Positions 1 through 34,772 of a stretch of DNA of 64,000 bases are shown piece after piece. The position numbers were made by a program, and so were the translations under genes. Each line of letters opens with the position of its first letter. Position 1 is the stretch's first letter. The DNA comes from Escherichia coli (GTDB taxonomy: Bacteria > Pseudomonadota > Gammaproteobacteria > Enterobacterales > Enterobacteriaceae). Where the stretch lies: assembly GCF_044324875.1 (NCBI RefSeq), contig NZ_CP172185.1, one strand, 5' to 3'. Under the pieces are notes generated by a model. That model worked only from the letters and a program-made list of their open reading frames with translations, did no database searches and was not told the DNA's origin.

Positions 1-828
1 CAGGAACTGCTGGAAGAGGCCCAGAAACTCGGTCTTGGCGCGCAGTTTGGCGGTAAATACTTCGCGCACGACATTCGCGTTATCCGTCTGCCACGTCACG
101 GCGCATCCTGCCCGGTAGGCATGGGCGTCTCCTGCTCCGCTGACCGCAACATTAAAGCGAAAATCAACCGCGAAGGTATCTGGATCGAAAAACTGGAACA
201 CAATCCAGGCCAGTACATTCCACAAGAACTGCGTCAGGCCGGTGAAGGCGAAGCGGTGAAAGTCGACCTTAACCGCCCGATGAAAGAGATCCTCGCCCAG
301 CTTTCGCAATACCCGGTATCCACCCGCTTGTCGCTCACCGGCACCATTATCGTGGGTCGAGATATTGCACACGCCAAGCTGAAAGAGCTGATTGACGCCG
401 GTAAAGAACTTCCGCAGTACATCAAAGATCACCCGATCTACTACGCGGGTCCGGCGAAAACCCCTGCCGGTTATCCATCAGGTTCACTTGGCCCAACCAC
501 CGCAGGTCGTATGGACTCCTACGTGGATCTGCTGCAATCCCACGGCGGCAGCATGATCATGCTGGCGAAAGGCAACCGCAGCCAGCAGGTTACCGACGCG
601 TGCCATAAACACGGCGGCTTTTACCTCGGTAGCATCGGCGGTCCAGCGGCGGTACTGGCGCAGCAGAGCATCAAGCATCTGGAATGCGTCGCTTATCCGG
701 AGCTGGGTATGGAAGCTATCTGGAAAATCGAAGTAGAAGATTTCCCGGCGTTTATCCTGGTCGATGACAAAGGCAACGACTTCTTCCAGCAAATCGTCAA
801 CAAACAGTGCGCGAACTGCACTAAGTAA
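1..828 (+). CDS. fumB: Class I fumarate hydratase, C-terminal part; 5' end lies upstream of the window
   Basis: Reading frame is open from base 1 to the stop at 826-828; the 235 aa shown match the C-terminus of Fe-S class I fumarase (ends NKQCANCTK). Position beside yjdF-melBA points to fumB rather than fumA. Confidence 0.85.
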
Positions 829-950
829 CCTCTTCGGCCCAGCGCCTGGCAGCATGCTGCCAGGTGATCCCCCTGGGCCACCTCTTTTGCGATTGTAATT
901 TCACGCTTGCTGGTGAATAGTCAGTATTTTCCCTGACTTGCGAACTCACC

Positions 951-1580
951 ATGACCCGCACACTCAAGCCGTTAATTCTTAACACCGGCGCACTGGCGCT
1001 AACGTTAATCCTGATTTATACCGGCATTTCGGCCCATGACAAACTCACCTGGCTGATGGAAGTGACACCGGTGATTATTGTCGTGCCGCTACTGCTTGCC
1101 ACCGCCAGACGTTATCCGTTAACGCCGCTGCTCTATACGCTCATCTTCTTTCACGCCATCATCCTGATGGTCGGCGGGCAGTATACCTACGCGAAAGTGC
1201 CCATCGGTTTTGAGGTGCAAGAATGGCTGGGATTGAGCCGTAATCCGTATGACAAGCTGGGGCATTTTTTCCAGGGGCTGGTGCCTGCACTGGTGGCACG
1301 AGAAATTCTCGTTCGCGGGATGTACGTGCGCGGACGTAAAATGGTGGCGTTCCTGGTCTGCTGCGTGGCGCTGGCGATAAGCGCGATGTATGAGTTAATC
1401 GAGTGGTGGGCAGCGCTGGCAATGGGTCAGGGAGCGGATGATTTTCTCGGCACCCAGGGCGACCAGTGGGACACGCAATCCGATATGTTCTGCGCGCTGC
1501 TTGGCGCATTAACGACGGTGATATTTCTCGCTCGCTTTCATTGCCGCCAGCTACGGCGCTTTGGCTTGATAACCGGATAA
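951..1580 (+). CDS. yjdF: Inner membrane protein YjdF (DUF2238 family)
   Basis: 209 aa ORF with multiple hydrophobic helices; conserved neighbour of melB/fumB in E. coli. Confidence 0.8.
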   Translation: MTRTLKPLILNTGALALTLILIYTGISAHDKLTWLMEVTPVIIVVPLLLATARRYPLTPLLYTLIFFHAIILMVGGQYTYAKVPIGFEVQEWLGLSRNPYDKLGHFFQGLVPALVAREILVRGMYVRGRKMVAFLVCCVALAISAMYELIEWWAALAMGQGADDFLGTQGDQWDTQSDMFCALLGALTTVIFLARFHCRQLRRFGLITG

Positions 1581-1595
1581 CAACGTGCGCTTTGT

Positions 1596-1633
1596 TGACG
1601 CCGGATGCGGCGTGAATTCCTTATCCGGTCTAC
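1596..1633. repeat. REP (repetitive extragenic palindromic) element between convergent yjdF and melB
   Basis: gccggatgcggcgtgaa...ttatccggtctac motif typical of E. coli REP/PU sequences. Confidence 0.6.
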
Positions 1634-1718
1634 AAAATTTGCAAATCCAAAGCATTACATTAAGACATGGCCTGATAAACATATCGCATCAGGCCATTTT
1701 CGTTAGCTATTGTCCACG

Positions 1719-3242: not shown

Positions 3243-4598
3243 TTAACGGTGCAACCAGCCAGGCAGCCAGTCGCCGTGGGCAGCAATCAAGTCGTCAACA
3301 AGAGCATATATTTCGTCAATGCCCAGCACGGCGGCAGTATGCGGGTCCATCATCGCGGCGTGGTAAACACGGTCGCGATTTTCCGTAAGAATGGCTTCGG
3401 TCAGCAGCGTCTGTACGTTGATGTTGGTTTGCATCAGGGCGGCCAGATGCGAAGGTAGCGTACCGACTTTGGTCGGCTGAATGCCATTAGCATCAACCAG
3501 ACAGGCCACTTCCACACAACATCCTTGTGGCAGGTTATCAATCAATCCATCGTTACGGACGTTGCCGTAAATCACACTCGGCTCGCCAGTCCAGATAGCG
3601 TTCATGATTGTGCTGGCATATTCCCGTGACGGTTTAATATCAATCCAGGAGGCGTTTTTATACTCCTCCAGCTCTTTATGCCAGTTCGCCAGCTGCTCGA
3701 CGCAGCGTTTCGGGTACTCATCCAGCGGTACTTTATAACGCTCAATCAAATCCTCACGACCTGGCTTAATGAACCACGGTGTGTACTCAGCAAAATGTTC
3801 TGACGATTCCGTGACGAAGTAGCCCAGCTTTTTGAACATTTCATAGCGCACAATATTCTGGCAGCGAGTATTGCCATGAATATTCGGCTTCGGTGCCTGC
3901 CCTGCTTCATAAGCCGCCAGCAGTTCCGGGTAGAGATTCACGTAACTGCCGTCGGCGGTTTTGCGCTCCAGTTCCAGGTAAAACGCCATATGGTTGATAC
4001 CTGCGCAACGGTAACGCAGCGTAGCCGGGTCGATATTGAGGTCACGCGCCAGTTCTTCCGCCGTTCCCTGCACCGAATGGCACAGCCCTACCTGTTTGAT
4101 ATGCGGATAGCGGGCATACATCGCCCAGGTATTCATCGCCATTGGGTTAACGTAGTTGAGCATGGTGGCATCGGGGCAGACTTCCGTCATGTCCTCGCAA
4201 ATTTGCCACAGGTGCGGAATGGTACGTAGCGCGCGCATAATACCGCCCGGCCCCAACGTATCGGCAATGGTTTGTTCCAGACCATGCCGCTTACAGACCT
4301 CGAAATCAGTCACCGTGCAAGGTTCATAACCGCCAATCTGAAATGCCACCACCACAAAATCGGCATCCTGTAAGGCTTCTTTCTGTTGGGTGTGGCAGGT
4401 GATTTTGCCGCTGGCCCCTGCTGAATCCATCAGCTTACGCACCACAATGTGCGACTCTTCCAGGCGGGTGGGATCAATGTCCATCAGGGCAATATGCGCC
4501 GTTTTCAGCGCCTCGCGATGGAACACATCACCAAGAATATTTTTAACGAAAATCGTCGAACCAGCGCCGATAAATGTAATTTTGGGTGCAGACATCAT
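3243..4598 (-). CDS. melA: Alpha-galactosidase (GH4, NAD/Mn dependent)
   Basis: 451 aa; N-terminal MMSAPKITFIGAGSTIF Rossmann motif typical of GH4; immediately upstream of melB in an operon. Confidence 0.95.
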   Translation of the reverse strand: MMSAPKITFIGAGSTIFVKNILGDVFHREALKTAHIALMDIDPTRLEESHIVVRKLMDSAGASGKITCHTQQKEALQDADFVVVAFQIGGYEPCTVTDFEVCKRHGLEQTIADTLGPGGIMRALRTIPHLWQICEDMTEVCPDATMLNYVNPMAMNTWAMYARYPHIKQVGLCHSVQGTAEELARDLNIDPATLRYRCAGINHMAFYLELERKTADGSYVNLYPELLAAYEAGQAPKPNIHGNTRCQNIVRYEMFKKLGYFVTESSEHFAEYTPWFIKPGREDLIERYKVPLDEYPKRCVEQLANWHKELEEYKNASWIDIKPSREYASTIMNAIWTGEPSVIYGNVRNDGLIDNLPQGCCVEVACLVDANGIQPTKVGTLPSHLAALMQTNINVQTLLTEAILTENRDRVYHAAMMDPHTAAVLGIDEIYALVDDLIAAHGDWLPGWLHR

Positions 4599-4880
4599 GC
4601 AGATCTCCTGGCTTGCTTGAATAACTTCATCATGGCAGGCGAATCTGCAGAAAACCTCCGGCTTCCAGGTTGAGCATTCCCATAAACTCAGATCCTACGT
4701 GAAGCATCAATAAATCTGAGTTTATGGGAATAAATTACCTGAAAAGCAGAGTTTTCGGCCTCATGATGCTCGGACGCTCCCCTCGCCGCTGTGGGAAGAG
4801 GGTGAAAACCGTGCTCCCACTCGCAGTCATCCTCCCTCACTCCTGCCATAATTCTGATATTCCAGGAAAGAGAGCCATCC
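4599..4880. promoter_or_regulatory. Divergent melR / melAB control region
   Basis: Non-coding spacer between divergently transcribed melA and melR; known from literature to carry MelR and CRP sites. Individual sites not mapped here. Confidence 0.5.
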
Positions 4881-5789
4881 ATGAATACAGATACGTTTAT
4901 GTGCAGCAGCGACGAAAAACAGACCCGCAGCCCGCTGTCGCTGTATTCGGAATACCAGCGGATGGAGATTGAGTTTCGCGCACCGCATATCATGCCCACC
5001 AGCCACTGGCATGGCCAGGTCGAAGTGAATGTGCCTTTCGATGGCGATGTGGAATACCTGATCAACAATGGAAAAGTGAATATCAATCAGGGTCATATCA
5101 CGCTGTTCTGGGCCTGTACACCGCACCAACTAACAGATACAGGAACCTGTCAGAGCATGGCGATTTTTAATCTGCCGATGCATCTGTTTCTCTCCTGGCC
5201 GCTGGATAAAGACCTGATTAACCACGTCACTCACGGCATGGTGATCAAATCACTGGCCACACAGCAACTTAGCCCGTTTGAAGTGCGCCGCTGGCAGCAG
5301 GAATTGAACAGTCCGAACGAGCAAATTCGCCAGCTCGCCATTGATGAAATTGGCCTGATGCTCAAGCGATTTAGCCTCTCTGGCTGGGAACCGATTCTGG
5401 TCAATAAAACCTCGCGCACACACAAAAACAGCGTCTCGCGCCATGCGCAATTTTATGTTAGCCAGATGCTGGGCTTTATTGCCGAAAACTATGATCAGGC
5501 GCTGACCATCAACGATGTGGCTGAGCACGTCAAACTTAACGCCAACTATGCAATGGGGATATTCCAGCGGGTCATGCAATTGACGATGAAACAGTACATA
5601 ACCGCGATGCGCATCAACCACGTTCGCGCGTTACTGAGCGATACCGATAAAAGTATTCTCGATATTGCCCTGACGGCAGGCTTTCGTTCAAGTAGTCGTT
5701 TTTACAGCACGTTCGGCAAATATGTCGGCATGTCGCCGCAACAATACCGCAAACTTAGCCAACAGCGCCGCCAGACGTTTCCCGGCTAA
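4881..5789 (+). CDS. melR: AraC-family melibiose operon activator
   Basis: 302 aa; C-terminal AraC-type HTH region (…ITAMRINHVRALLSDTDKSILDIALTAGFRSSSRFYSTF…). Confidence 0.9.
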   Translation: MNTDTFMCSSDEKQTRSPLSLYSEYQRMEIEFRAPHIMPTSHWHGQVEVNVPFDGDVEYLINNGKVNINQGHITLFWACTPHQLTDTGTCQSMAIFNLPMHLFLSWPLDKDLINHVTHGMVIKSLATQQLSPFEVRRWQQELNSPNEQIRQLAIDEIGLMLKRFSLSGWEPILVNKTSRTHKNSVSRHAQFYVSQMLGFIAENYDQALTINDVAEHVKLNANYAMGIFQRVMQLTMKQYITAMRINHVRALLSDTDKSILDIALTAGFRSSSRFYSTFGKYVGMSPQQYRKLSQQRRQTFPG

Positions 5790-31660: not shown

Positions 31661-31682
31661 TGGGAGGGAATGTGCGCGCTGG

Positions 31683-31797
31683 CCCCCTCACCCTAACCCT
31701 CTCCCCAGAGGGGCGAGGGGACCGATTGTGCTCGATATTGAATATTGCGCTGGTTTTCTCCCTCGCCCCATTGGGGAGAGGGCCGGGGTGAGAGGCG
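31683..31797. repeat. GC-rich composite inverted repeat (boxC-like) between convergent phnP and yjdP
   Basis: Arm A ccccctcaccctaaccctctccccagaggggcgagggga (31683-31721) and arm B tctccctcgccccattggggagagggccggggtgagagg (31757-31797) are near reverse complements, separated by about 35 bp containing a short AT palindrome. Confidence 0.5.
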
Positions 31798-31818
31798 ATG
31801 CCTGCTCCATACCCAACA

Positions 31819-32148
31819 TCAACGCCCATACTCATCTTCCATTCTCCGCTCTTCATCTTCTAGCTGCCGACGCTCCTGATCCAGCTGGCGCTGGCGATCG
31901 TCCAGCTGCCTGCGGCGATCTTCAAACTGGCGGCGGCGATCGTCATATTGTCTGCGCCGATCGTCGTTCACTTCACGCTGCCAGCCGTCGTCGCGCGAAT
32001 CTTCATAGTCTCGCCCACGGTCAGGGTTATAAGCGTCGTTAATCGCCTGCTGAATATTGCCAATGGTGTCGTCGATAATATCGGCCTGGGCCGGAACGGT
32101 GGACAGCGTGAGCAGGGTGAATAAAAGAAATAGCGGAAAGCGTTTCAT
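31819..32148 (-). CDS. yjdP: Small secreted protein YjdP with periodic acidic/basic repeats
   Basis: 109 aa; N-terminal signal peptide MKRFPLFLLFTLLTLSTVPAQA followed by repeats of the DDRRRQ type; degenerate 24-bp DNA periodicity visible. Confidence 0.8.
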   Translation of the reverse strand: MKRFPLFLLFTLLTLSTVPAQADIIDDTIGNIQQAINDAYNPDRGRDYEDSRDDGWQREVNDDRRRQYDDRRRQFEDRRRQLDDRQRQLDQERRQLEDEERRMEDEYGR

Positions 32149-32216
32149 TAGCCAACCTCAAAAAGAAACTCTATCCACATTAGTCATTACTCATCCATGC
32201 AAGTAGTGGATGAATC

Positions 32217-32534
32217 TCAATTTCTCCGCTGCTCTATTGCCGTAATCGCCTCCACGCGTTGTTGATGACGACCGCCTTCGTACTGCGCGCCCAGCCACGC
32301 ATCCACAATCATTTTTGCCAGTTCGAGGCCAACCACTCGTGAACCAAAAGCCAGTGCAACTTCACTGGCGTAATGCGGATAATCAGTACGCTCTGACGAC
32401 CTGGTTTCTTTATCAATCCCCTCACTCATTGACCATGAATAAAAGGCTGGCACAGCAACGCAGAATCCTGCGGTGCCAGCGACATGACCGCCCATTGCTC
32501 CGGTACGTTTTTTAATAAAAAACACCGGTTGCAT
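32217..32534 (-). pseudogene. rpiB: Truncated ribose-5-phosphate isomerase B remnant
   Basis: C-terminal ~46 residues (AFGSRVVGLELAKMIVDAWLGAQYEGGRHQQRVEAITAIEQRRN) and the SSERTDYPHYAS segment match RpiB as I recall it, but the central catalytic region (ICGTGVG… block) is missing and the N-terminal 40 residues are not recognisable. Confidence 0.6.
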
Positions 32535-32786
32535 TGATTAATTGTGCTCAGTATTTGCCGAAGTACAATATATATAATAAATATATAAAACACCTCATAT
32601 TATTTACAGAGATAATAAATTCGCGTACTTTTCCCTCTTCAGCACAAATGCCTAATAAAATGGCTCGCTCCGCTCACACTTCCACTTATTAAAGTCGCAA
32701 ATTCCCAATTATGATAACGCCAGCTTTAAATGACGTATTTTGCATGGATTACATATTTACGACACAAATGATAAATGGAGATTTAT

Positions 32787-34772
32787 ATGAATAACTCTCG
32801 GTTATTCCGTTTGAGCAGGATTGTTATTGCGTTAACTGCCGCCAGCGGCATGATGGTAAATACCGCTTACGCAACAGATGAAGCGAAAGCCGCCACTCAA
32901 TATACCCAACAGGTTAATCAGAATTACGCCAAATCATTACCGTTTAGCGATCGTCAGGATTTTGACGATGCCCAGCGTGGATTTATCGCCCCGCTGCTGG
33001 ATGAAGGTATTCTGCGTGATGCGAACGGTAAAGTTTACTACCGCGCAGACGATTACAAATTTGATATTAATGCCGCTGCGCCGGAAACCGTAAACCCCAG
33101 CCTGTGGCGTCAGTCGCAAATCAACGGTATTTCTGGCCTGTTCAAAGTCACCGATAAAATGTATCAGGTGCGCGGCCAGGATATCTCTAACATTACGTTC
33201 GTTGAGGGCGAGAAAGGCATTATTGTTATCGACCCGCTGGTGACGCCGCCTGCCGCAAAAGCCGCACTTGATCTTTACTTCCAGCATCGTCCGCAAAAAC
33301 CGATTGTTGCTGTGATTTACACCCACAGCCACGCCGACCATTATGGCGGTGTGAAAGGCATTATCTCTGAAGCGGATGTTAAATCCGGCAAAGTGCAGGT
33401 GATCGCTCCGGCAGGCTTTATGGACGAAGCCATCAGCGAAAACGTGCTGGCGGGTAACATCATGAGCCGCCGTGCGCTCTACTCTTACGGTCTGTTACTG
33501 CCGCACAACGCGCAAGGCAACGTGGGCAACGGCCTGGGCGTGACGCTGGCAACCGGCGACCCGAGCATTATTGCACCGACTAAAACTATCGTCAGAACTG
33601 GCGAGAAGATGATTATCGACGGCCTGGAATTTGACTTCCTGATGACTCCGGGTAGCGAAGCGCCAGCCGAAATGCACTTCTATATTCCGGCCCTGAAAGC
33701 CCTGTGTACCGCCGAGAACGCCACGCATACCCTGCACAACTTCTACACTCTGCGCGGCGCGAAAACCCGCGATACCAGCAAGTGGACCGAGTACCTGAAC
33801 GAAACGCTGGATATGTGGGGTAACGACGCGGAAGTACTGTTTATGCCGCACACCTGGCCGGTCTGGGGCAATAAGCATATCAATGATTATATTGGTAAAT
33901 ATCGCGATACTATCAAGTACATTCACGACCAGACCCTGCACCTGGCGAACCAGGGCTACACCATGAATGAAATCGGCGACATGATTAAGCTGCCGCCTGC
34001 GCTTGCCAATAACTGGGCCAGCCGCGGCTATTACGGTTCTGTCAGCCACAACGCCCGCGCGGTGTATAACTTCTATCTTGGCTATTACGACGGTAACCCG
34101 GCTAACCTACATCCGTATGGTCAGGTGGAGATGGGTAAACGTTACGTGAAAGCGCTGGGCGGTTCTGCCCGCGTCATCAACCTGGCGCAAGAAGCGAACA
34201 AGCAAGGTGATTACCGTTGGTCGGCAGAACTGCTGAAACAGGTGATTGCCGCCAACCCTGGTGACCAGGTCGCGAAGAATCTGCAAGCGAATAACTTTGA
34301 ACAGCTGGGCTATCAGGCCGAGTCCGCCACCTGGCGCGGTTTCTACCTGACCGGCGCGAAAGAGCTGCGCGAAGGGGTGCATAAATTCAACCACGGCACC
34401 ACCGGTTCCCCGGACACCCTTCGCGGAATGTCGGTCGAAATGCTGTTCGACTTTATGTCCGTTCGCCTCGATAGTGCGAAAGCCGCGGGTAAAAATATCA
34501 GCCTGAACTTCAATATGAGCAACGGCGATAACCTCAACCTGACGCTGAACGATAGCGTGCTTAACTACCGTAAAACGCTGCAACCGCAAGCCGACGCCTC
34601 TTTCTACATCAGCCGTGAAGATCTGCATGCCGTGCTGACCGGACAAGTCAAAATAGTGGATCTGGTAAAAGCGAAGAAAGCCAAAATTATTGGCAATGGC
34701 GCGAAACTGGAAGAAATTATTGCCTGTCTGGATAATTTCGATTTGTGGGTGAATATCGTAACCCCAAATTAA
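32787..34772 (+). CDS. yjcS: MBL-fold alkyl/aryl sulfatase (SdsA1-like)
   Basis: 661 aa; signal peptide, THSHADH zinc motif, SCP2-like C-terminus; start set at second ATG (MNNSRLFRL…). Confidence 0.9.

Follow-up and report, generated by a model that had tools for sequence, protein, structure and literature searches.

YjdP of Escherichia coli: a predicted periplasmic DDRRRQL-repeat helix and a conserved RcsB-box-like element upstream of its gene

Charged single alpha-helix (CSAH, or ER/K) domains are found in, for example, myosin VI/X and caldesmon, and in such helices the spacing of opposite charges at i+3 and i+4 supports intra-helix salt bridges. The periplasmic coiled coil of Lpp is 56 residues long, and the LTXXQ proteins CpxP, Spy and ZraP, which are regulated by Cpx, Bae and Zra, are small, Sec-exported, all-helical proteins that form folded helical cradles. 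At promoters that respond to RcsB only, such as those of osmC, bdm and rprA, the RcsB box lies directly upstream of the -35 element. Here we compare with these systems the product and the upstream region of yjdP.

The DNA analyzed is a stretch of 64,000 nucleotides from an E. coli genome (contig NZ_CP172185.1 of assembly GCF_044324875.1), referred to below as the window. Its list of open reading frames (ORFs) contains an ATG-started ORF of 109 amino acids at exactly 31819-32148 on the minus strand. The encoded protein is identical to WP_000819739.1 of E. coli PCN033; by megablast, the DNA matches PCN033 yjdP at 100% identity and its K-12 counterpart at 97.6%. The window and K-12 proteins differ at a single residue (N61 in the window, S61 in K-12). 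The NCBIfam equivalog model NF041443 matches the whole protein (profile positions 1 to 101 of 101) at 147.4 bits with an E value of 1.2e-43, above the curated cutoff of 90 bits. The Pfam family PF28054, named "YjdP," is precomputed on all YjdP homologues; a local Pfam copy gave no significant match to YjdP, the family being present in a newer release.

The ORF is E. coli yjdP, as a preliminary description of this DNA had stated, and NCBIfam and Pfam already list the gene and family together with the 7-residue repeat. That description also saw in it an unusual secreted protein; it is no unrecognized oddity, since a curated model exists in NF041443 alongside PF28054 and RefSeq labels it throughout as "DDRRRQL repeat protein YjdP." All members of the family share a four-part architecture, which is kept down to about 40% identity across genera: a signal peptide, a helix of the form ADIIDD..AINDAY, an acidic linker, and an array of 7-residue RRRQL(D/E)(D/E) units. 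The window protein has this identical architecture, and its gene occupies the K-12 genomic position. The locus differs from that of K-12 in that yjdP adjoins a decayed rpiB, without the als operon. The features of the locus are collected in Table 1.

TABLE 1 Coordinates of yjdP and of the features in and around it (positions in the 64,000-nucleotide window)
Feature	Position	Strand	Basis
yjdP coding sequence, 109 codons plus stop	31819..32148	-	ORF list, megablast, NF041443 HMM, dN/dS
Predicted signal peptide, residues 1-22 (MKRFPLFLLFTLLTLSTVPAQA; predicted cleavage after AQA, before D)	32083..32148	-	Read from sequence
Predicted N-terminal amphipathic helix, precursor residues 24-40 (IIDDTIGNIQQAINDAY)	32029..32079	-	AlphaFold2, hydrophobic moment, alignment
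Acidic variable linker, precursor residues 41-53	31990..32028	-	AlphaFold2 coil, family alignment
Predicted single continuous 55-residue alpha-helix, precursor residues 54-108	31825..31989	-	AlphaFold2, tethered-dimer model
Six in-register heptads, residues 64-105	31834..31959	-	Tandem Repeats Finder, lag-7 statistics, register
Shine-Dalgarno GAGG, 7 nt before ATG	32156..32159	-	Read from sequence
Putative -10 hexamer TAATGT	32177..32182	-	Alignments of 11 loci
RcsB-box-like element TGAGATTCATCCAC	32206..32219	-	11-locus alignment, comparison with published box
Inverted pair of 36-nt GC-rich intergenic repeats, between the convergent yjdP and phnP stop codons	31684..31795	.	

Upstream region of yjdP and its probable response to envelope stress

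We aligned the 115 bp upstream of 11 yjdP loci with unrelated flanks and read the alignment as a footprint. Most of the aligned regions retain a purine-rich Shine-Dalgarno block, and the sequence T-A-n-n-n-T, the putative -10 element, is invariant in 11 of 11 loci. It lies 25 nt downstream of a conserved 16-nt block, TTG(A/G)GAnTnnTC(C/T) at 32205-32220, which is invariant in the 11 loci, drawn from at least six genera. The block occurs once in the window, where chance would give 0 occurrences; the box within it abuts the -35 position, and its center lies approximately 42 bp before the inferred start site.

Between the box and the -10 element the 11-locus alignment contains no conserved -35 element, and a simple sigma-70 scan returned no full -35/-10 pair for yjdP, a pattern typical of an activator-dependent promoter. 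Two other uses of the block were considered and rejected: TTGAGA as a -35 hexamer, because the alignment has no conserved -10 at 16 to 18 bp downstream, and an anti-Shine-Dalgarno hairpin involving the CCTCC of the box, because its pairing partner is not conserved.

The gene upstream of yjdP varies from locus to locus, being rpiB, a GNAT remnant, a hybrid histidine kinase, or a divergently oriented gene. Because the upstream elements are conserved despite these differing neighbors, yjdP appears to have its own promoter. The rpiB of the window is a remnant that carries an internal deletion and has no promoter, and yjdP must use a promoter of its own there. (The TGA within the box doubles as the stop codon of this rpiB remnant.) We propose that this promoter is activator dependent.

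As delimited experimentally, the box bound by the RcsB homodimer reads TN(G/A)GAN4TC(T/C)NA (PMC7913699). The yjdP box matches this consensus at seven of its eight specified positions; the exception is the final A, which is C or G in the yjdP loci and never A. Only two substitutions occur at specified positions, namely G for A at position 3 and T for C at position 12, and the consensus permits both. The consensus is itself degenerate, with one match in the window against 2.2 expected by chance. Set beside RcsB-activated promoters, the yjdP upstream region shares the TGAGA-N4-TCC core, a box directly upstream of the -35 position, and a weak -35, and differs in its last consensus base. A literature search found no paper stating RcsB control of yjdP, nor any report of RcsB binding there or of rcsB dependence.

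Expression data come from published RNA sequencing of cells treated with a LolCDE inhibitor, in which yjdP rose 9.5- and 10.6-fold alongside the Rcs regulon and in a list with wca, yjbEFG, rcsA, ivy, and osmC, and also with the Cpx genes cpxP, degP, and yncJ (PMC5105897). The gene is probably induced by envelope stress, and the RcsB-like 16-nt block fits this roughly 10-fold induction. No further yjdP entry was found in three further expression supplements or under alternative identifiers. The ChIP table of an acid-resistance paper was set aside as support for RcsB because it reports CsiR/Nac induction.

The conserved box would most likely be bound by phosphorylated RcsB, which would place YjdP in the Rcs envelope-stress response; direct control of yjdP by RcsB seems somewhat more likely than not. 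A rather unlikely but substantial alternative is that the box serves a different regulator, another NarL/FixJ-type protein or one linked to Cpx, and that induction by envelope stress is indirect. The departure from the RcsB consensus at the last position in every species, the low information content of that consensus, and the Cpx genes among those co-induced by the LolCDE inhibitor are all compatible with such a regulator, and a CsiR/Nac induction data set has a peak inside yjdP, with 3.5-fold repression. The tolerated substitutions nonetheless follow the degeneracy of the RcsB box, the position of the box matches that at RcsB-only promoters, and the 11-locus alignment contains no conserved CpxR-type GTAAA repeat.

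The PRECISE iModulons bear on the same question, for they place yjdP with rpiB in the CRP-dependent "Crp-2" module and not in RcsAB (PMC6892915). The RcsAB iModulon, however, contains only RcsA-dependent capsule genes (PMC6892915). Read-through from rpiB in K-12, which would add to the transcription of yjdP there, best accounts for the Crp-2 grouping.

Repeat unit and length variation of YjdP

Tandem Repeats Finder reports 3.9 copies of a 21-bp period, with 77% matches, at 31885-31965. At lags of 7, 14, and 21 residues the protein has self-identities of 0.57, 0.45, and 0.42, respectively, compared with 0.17 for the shuffle null; at most 1 of 2000 shuffles reaches the value at any of these lags, and lag 8 gives 0.30. 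For the DNA of yjdP, self-identity is 0.60 at lag 21 versus 0.47 at lag 24. The repeat unit is 7 residues, or 21 bp. A period of about 8 residues mirrored by a 24-bp DNA repeat, as given in the preliminary description, is rejected by these statistics; the chunks quoted there (DDRRRQYD, DRRRQFED, and RRRQLDDR) slip by one residue each, so that they too have a true period of 7. The periodicity itself, an oppositely charged repeat following a signal peptide, had been correctly recognized and lies far above chance in the shuffles.

The heptads are, in order, RRRQYDD, RRRQFED, RRRQLDD, RQRQLDQ, ERRQLED, and EERRMED, and the best-kept 21-bp copies are those at 31885-31965. In heptad register, position a is R (reading R, R, R, Q, R, E, Y along the array), b is R, c is Q, d is Y/F/L/L/L/M, e is D or E, and f is D; at position g, R occupies heptads one to four and E the final three. 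Arg, Asp, Gln, and Glu account for 82% of the C-terminal 49 residues, which carry a net charge of -1, and for 67% of the whole mature protein, whose net charge of -8 is concentrated in residues 23-61. The protein had been described as almost entirely D/E and R/Q, which holds for the tail but not for the first 38 mature residues, an Ile-rich amphipathic helix followed by an Asp-rich linker. We suggest that the long helix arose by amplification of the 21-bp unit encoding DDRRRQL.

The length of YjdP varies in whole-repeat units, with forms of 95, 102, 109, and 123 amino acids, and the helix of natural alleles has between 41 and 69 residues. In a set of 100 cluster representatives sharing 70% or more identity with the window protein, the repeat region shows 44 indels, of which 31 are exact 7-residue deletions that fall at three different heptads; one 14-residue deletion (95 amino acids) and one 14-residue insertion (123 amino acids, in E. 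albertii) also occur. Such variants are rare within E. coli, where heptad number is nearly fixed: the main 102-amino-acid allele is present in 18 of 5404 complete genomes (at least 95% identity), and a 21-bp change was seen in none of roughly 100 evenly sampled genomes.

The frequent length polymorphism of E. coli is instead a 9-bp unit, TTCACGCTG, which encodes LFT and lies in the h-region of the signal peptide. Its expansion takes the 330-bp form to 339, 357, and 366 bp. One allele (L003) carries the 9-bp repeat TTCACGCTG 5.6 times, and the 357-bp allele is found at 99% identity or more in 395 genomes, that of ZH063 among them. The earlier expectation that the repeat might vary in copy number between strains is thus borne out in that whole-heptad forms exist, but they are rare in E. 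coli, where the frequent change is in the LFT unit of the signal peptide.

Predicted export and structure of YjdP

The N terminus consists of MKR, a 15-residue hydrophobic core (FPLFLLFTLLTLSTV), and PAQA, followed by D. It has the features of a canonical Sec signal peptide cut by SPase I, namely, a charged n-region, an h-region, and small residues at -3 and -1, without a lipobox Cys; YjdP contains no Cys at all and is therefore not a lipoprotein. The A-x-A site before D is conserved across genera, and conservation of the family starts exactly at D23, the leader sequence being variable; within the leader lies an LFT/LLT tripeptide tract that is expanded in other strains. The clear signal peptide noted earlier is thereby confirmed in its sequence features. 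YjdP is predicted to be exported to the periplasm, and Sec export with cleavage after AQA would leave an 87-residue periplasmic protein.

We modeled the mature protein with AlphaFold2, using a family alignment of 15 sequences. The model has a helix at mature residues 2-18, of low confidence (pLDDT of about 56), with a hydrophobic moment of 0.52; in the family alignment, A13 of this helix is invariant and Q12 nearly so. Residues 19-31 form a coil (pLDDT below 50 at 22-27), and residues 32-86 form one unbroken helix, approximately 8 nm long if straight, for which the means of 10-residue blocks in the repeat reach pLDDT values of 86-96 (pTM, 0.40). The acidic linker is the most variable segment of the family alignment, and the near-neutral repeat is the most conserved part. 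YjdP is thus predicted to comprise a short helix of amphipathic character, a disordered linker rich in Asp, and a single helix of about 55 residues. Coiled coil and intrinsic disorder had both been raised as possible outcomes of structure prediction; the model has a long helix with a hydrophobic seam at position d only, and the linker is predicted to be disordered.

The long helix has a nonrandom arrangement of charge. Against 5000 shuffles, opposite charges are enriched at i+3 (z = +2.9) and i+4 (z = +3.5), and like charges are depleted at i+3 (z = -3.3) and i+4 (z = -3.2). Its hydrophobic residues share one heptad position, with an angular resultant of 0.95. Across 15 orthologues, down to 39% identity, Q64, L67, and L74 are invariant, and Leu and the preceding Gln are in general invariant or nearly so. 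In a tethered-dimer model, the long helix is kept and the two copies pack against each other, the linker biasing the arrangement toward an antiparallel hairpin.

These features suggest a stiff rod, in which opposite charges 3 to 4 residues apart would permit salt bridges within the helix, with a Gln-Leu seam that returns once per heptad (d being Leu, a and g Arg, and e Asp or Glu). The seam may be an interface for self-pairing of the rod or for its pairing with a partner, in which case YjdP would act structurally or by binding rather than as an enzyme. By this inference YjdP would self-associate and have a protective or structural role.

Comparison with described helical proteins places YjdP between several of them. 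It resembles CSAH/ER-K domains in the enrichment of opposite charges and depletion of like charges at i+3/i+4, in its acidic-then-basic blocks with a period of about 7, and in the long isolated helix predicted for it. Unlike them, it uses Asp, Arg, and Gln instead of Glu and Lys, is bacterial and predicted to be periplasmic, and has a regular hydrophobic seam (Y/F/L/L/L/M at d, with Leu invariant). With the leucine zipper it shares a strict heptad, Leu at d, and, through its first four heptads, e and g positions of opposite charge, but position a is Arg and not hydrophobic, so that the paired a and d positions of a zipper are lacking; Arg at a is ill suited to the core of a classical coiled coil. 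In the tethered model the arrangement is like that of antiparallel coiled-coil hairpins.

Among periplasmic helices, that of Lpp is similar in length to the approximately 55 residues of YjdP, but YjdP has neither a lipobox nor the peptidoglycan-attachment Lys and no sequence kinship to any solved coiled coil. CpxP, Spy, and ZraP are, as is predicted for YjdP, small, Sec exported, and all helical, and a LolCDE inhibitor co-induces the two types; they differ from it in being folded cradles and not a repeat rod and in answering to Cpx, Bae, or Zra and not to the proposed Rcs regulator. The LTXXQ motif is absent from YjdP, which matched no CpxP/Spy/ZraP family of Pfam or NCBIfam at an E value of 1 or less. 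A sequence search of the PDB gave only composition-driven coiled-coil matches, the best of them to M protein (E = 0.006), and Foldseek against the PDB returned nothing for the monomer or the tethered model, rods not being searchable by Foldseek.

The helix could alternatively be a monomeric ER/K-type single alpha-helix, a stiff periplasmic spacer or spring adjustable in heptad steps of 1 nm and free of self-association. The charge period of 7, the i+3/i+4 enrichment, the near-zero net charge of the repeat region, the change of length by whole heptads, and the single unbroken helix that AlphaFold2 builds without tertiary contacts (pTM, 0.40) would all suit such a spacer. We nevertheless regard it as unlikely: every orthologue keeps Leu (and Gln) strictly at a single heptad position, which is unexpected for a solvent-exposed single alpha-helix, tethered copies are modeled packed together, and length variants are rare in E. 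coli.

Improbable, in our estimate, is a role centered on the Asp-rich N-terminal half, with YjdP acting as a periplasmic cation-binding protein or polyampholyte buffer or as a decoy for cationic peptides or lysozyme. The net charge of -8 on the mature protein, concentrated in residues 23-61, would be in keeping with such a role, and the genes expressed along with yjdP include lysozyme inhibitors under Rcs control, for instance ivy. The acidic linker is, however, the least conserved part of the protein and the near-neutral repeat the most conserved, and searches of NCBIfam, Pfam, and PDB sequences recognized no metal-binding or inhibitor domain. A rod with a pairing seam remains our preferred reading of the mature protein.

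Genomic context, conservation, and significance of yjdP

In Escherichia, Citrobacter, Buttiauxella, a Klebsiella metagenome-assembled genome, Cronobacter, and three further lineages, yjdP faces the final phn gene, or what remains of phn, in convergent orientation; in Entomohabitans, phn is absent and only yjdM/phnA lies near yjdP. The preliminary description had taken the adjacency to phn as a functional lead. This would tie YjdP to phosphonate or phosphate metabolism, and the lead has in its favor that yjdP lies immediately beyond phnP or beside phn remnants in every context examined except Entomohabitans and that the stop codons overlap in some loci. It is very improbable all the same. The gene is convergent with phnP and not co-oriented, which puts it outside the phn transcript; it has its own conserved promoter block; and its known induction is by envelope stress. 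It also persists at loci in which phn is missing or reduced to phnH/phnG remnants, so that the link to phn is positional only. A Pho-box scan found none near yjdP, although it has little power, having missed the phnC promoter as well.

The two repeats between the yjdP and phnP stop codons are 83% complementary, and the corresponding RNA folds at -98 kcal/mol (z = -7.8). They are absent from alleles that have a 27-bp spacer, and the same spacer of K-12 has been listed as a hairpin/G-quadruplex element (PMC5100583). They probably act as a two-way terminator or as a stabilizer hairpin. Rfam gave only sub-threshold, microRNA-like noise on the GC-rich hairpin at this locus.

YjdP is near-universal in E. 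coli, being present in 5404 of the 5426 complete genomes. When 1.84 billion cluster representatives were scanned exhaustively with HMMER, only 51 relatives were recovered. Named members come from Escherichia, Shigella, Citrobacter, Klebsiella, Buttiauxella, Cronobacter, and Entomohabitans. One weak relative, from a soil metagenome, still has PF28054. The gene is a genuine stand-alone gene whose family comprises Enterobacteriaceae and a few environmental relatives. Names attached to relatives in JGI data ("RuvC/YqgF nuclease," "Skp chaperone," and "colicin uptake") were rejected as low-complexity COG artifacts. PADLOC and PHROGs returned nothing meaningful for YjdP, which argues that it is not a defense or phage protein, and a literature search found no experiment on the YjdP protein. 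One allele is disrupted by IS1, and the gene is accordingly dispensable in at least one strain.

Compared with other alleles and genera, yjdP has dN/dS ratios of 0.04 to 0.25; the comparison with Citrobacter gives a dS of 1.17 and a dN of 0.11. These values are strong evidence that yjdP is under purifying selection, with synonymous change saturated. The idea that the ORF is a low-complexity artifact of the DNA repeat with no functional protein, to which the composition of the sequence, the lack of a characterized function, and the IS1-disrupted allele might lend color, is already effectively refuted by this selection, the architecture held across genera, the conserved Shine-Dalgarno and promoter elements, indels that keep both the reading frame and the heptad, and the near-universal presence of the gene.

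Starting from the identity, repeat unit, selection, distribution, and predicted architecture of YjdP set out above, the reading that we favor, with slightly more confidence than doubt, is that of a periplasmic DDRRRQL rod with a pairing seam, made from its own, probably RcsB-driven promoter and acting structurally or by binding. RcsB control enters this reading by inference from the conserved box. Ion binding, a phosphate link, and a strictly monomeric spacer are the less supported alternatives. A bolder version appears to us quite improbable: that RcsB directly activates a salt-bridge-stiffened rod of about 8 nm, tuned in length by heptad steps of 1 nm, which serves as an envelope spacer, cross-brace, or polyelectrolyte shield under outer-membrane stress. 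If it were true, YjdP would be the first bacterial periplasmic mechanical element of the single-alpha-helix type.

As a sequence feature the locus adds little, since the gene, family, and repeat are curated and the protein is identical to a RefSeq entry. Its value is that of a cheap and well-defined target among the uncharacterized y-genes of E. coli: a near-universal, envelope-stress-induced protein that is predicted to be periplasmic and to have an unusual all-charged helical rod. The 16-nt upstream block is a new and directly testable lead, a footprinted promoter element that predicts direct control by RcsB and makes that prediction easy to test. If RcsB control proves true, YjdP would bring a new structural type to the Rcs regulon, and the family would offer a natural series of heptad lengths with which to probe the role of the rod.

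Length variation in the signal peptide and the charged array

The common length polymorphism of yjdP lies in a 9-bp repeat within the signal-peptide coding region and not in the charged repeat. The repeat unit, TTCACGCTG, encodes the tripeptide LFT in the signal-peptide h-region and has expanded in copy number among E. coli strains. E. coli alleles of 330, 339, 357, and 366 bp encode proteins of 109, 112, 118, and 121 amino acids, respectively, and 395 complete genomes carry the 357-bp allele (at least 99% identity). Across the signal-peptide alleles the h-region grows from approximately 15 to 24 residues, and a longer h-region could affect targeting or cleavage.

Among metagenomic and Klebsiella-like relatives (P0142, P0146, P0153, P0156, and P0160), some carry a second repeat in the linker, composed of (D)DGRY pentapeptides. 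Many database entries for these relatives are frameshifted within the Arg-codon-rich heptad array, which suggests that the 21-bp repeat readily gives rise to assembly or sequencing errors.

Coordinates of features in and around yjdP (window, unless another yjdP locus is named)
Feature	Coordinates	Strand	Remark
Signal-peptide segment with the LFT-coding 9-bp tandem repeat	32083-32148; L003 328-377; also L004	- (window)	yjdP h-region
yjdP-phnP spacer	31661-31818; arms 31684-31719 / 31760-31795		between convergent stop codons
Putative -10 element, TAnnnT	32177-32182	-	upstream of yjdP
RcsB-box-like block, 16 nt	32205-32220	-	upstream of yjdP
rpiB remnant, 105 aa	32217-32534	-	aligns to K-12 RpiB
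rpiB remnant-yjcS interval	32535-32774		240 bp
yjcS	32775-34772	+	240 bp from rpiB remnant
yjdP with MKPYSTLF... leader	L005 (E. coli O145 RM12367-C1) 285-614		EHEC O145-type
yjdP with IS1X2 insertion	L006 (E. coli FLI21) 574-1679		yjdP split
203-aa ORF	L010 (Buttiauxella) 4582-5193		yjdP-phnP gap
higB/higA-type toxin-antitoxin pair	L011 (Citrobacter metagenome scaffold) 4487-5157		between yjdP and phnP

A conserved upstream block beside variable neighbors

The RcsB-box-like block and the TAnnnT element are unchanged in 11 yjdP loci from at least six genera, with every flank diverged. Three unrelated upstream genes, namely, rpiB, a hybrid kinase gene (Citrobacter), and a GNAT remnant (O145), end at a TGA stop codon within this block. 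In the window, the rpiB remnant aligns to residues 29 to 53 and 107 to 149 of K-12 RpiB and carries an internal deletion; its 5′ end is foreign. The als operon (alsR, alsB, alsA, and beyond) of the yjcS-rpiB interval is entirely absent, which leaves yjcS 240 bp from the rpiB remnant. The OI-167 island of EHEC is located at this same yjcS-rpiB junction (PMC10128022).

The yjdP-phnP spacer

The window spacer contains two 36-nt GC-rich inverted repeats predicted to fold into a hairpin (−98 kcal/mol, z = −7.8); this element is missing from other E. coli alleles, whose spacer measures just 27 bp. The K-12 spacer appears in a published listing of hairpin/G-quadruplex elements (PMC5100583). Because the Citrobacter toxin-antitoxin pair and the Buttiauxella ORF, for which no Pfam match was found, occupy the same position, the yjdP-phnP gap is an insertion hotspot.

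Divergent and disrupted alleles

Both the leader and the promoter spacer of the EHEC O145-type yjdP are distinct, and its neighbor is a GNAT pseudogene in place of rpiB. One E. albertii allele (P0037) has the same leader. Together, these sequence features suggest that the variable region has its recombination boundary at the yjdP 5′ end. Since IS1X2 splits the gene in the clinical strain FLI21, yjdP is dispensable at least in that strain.
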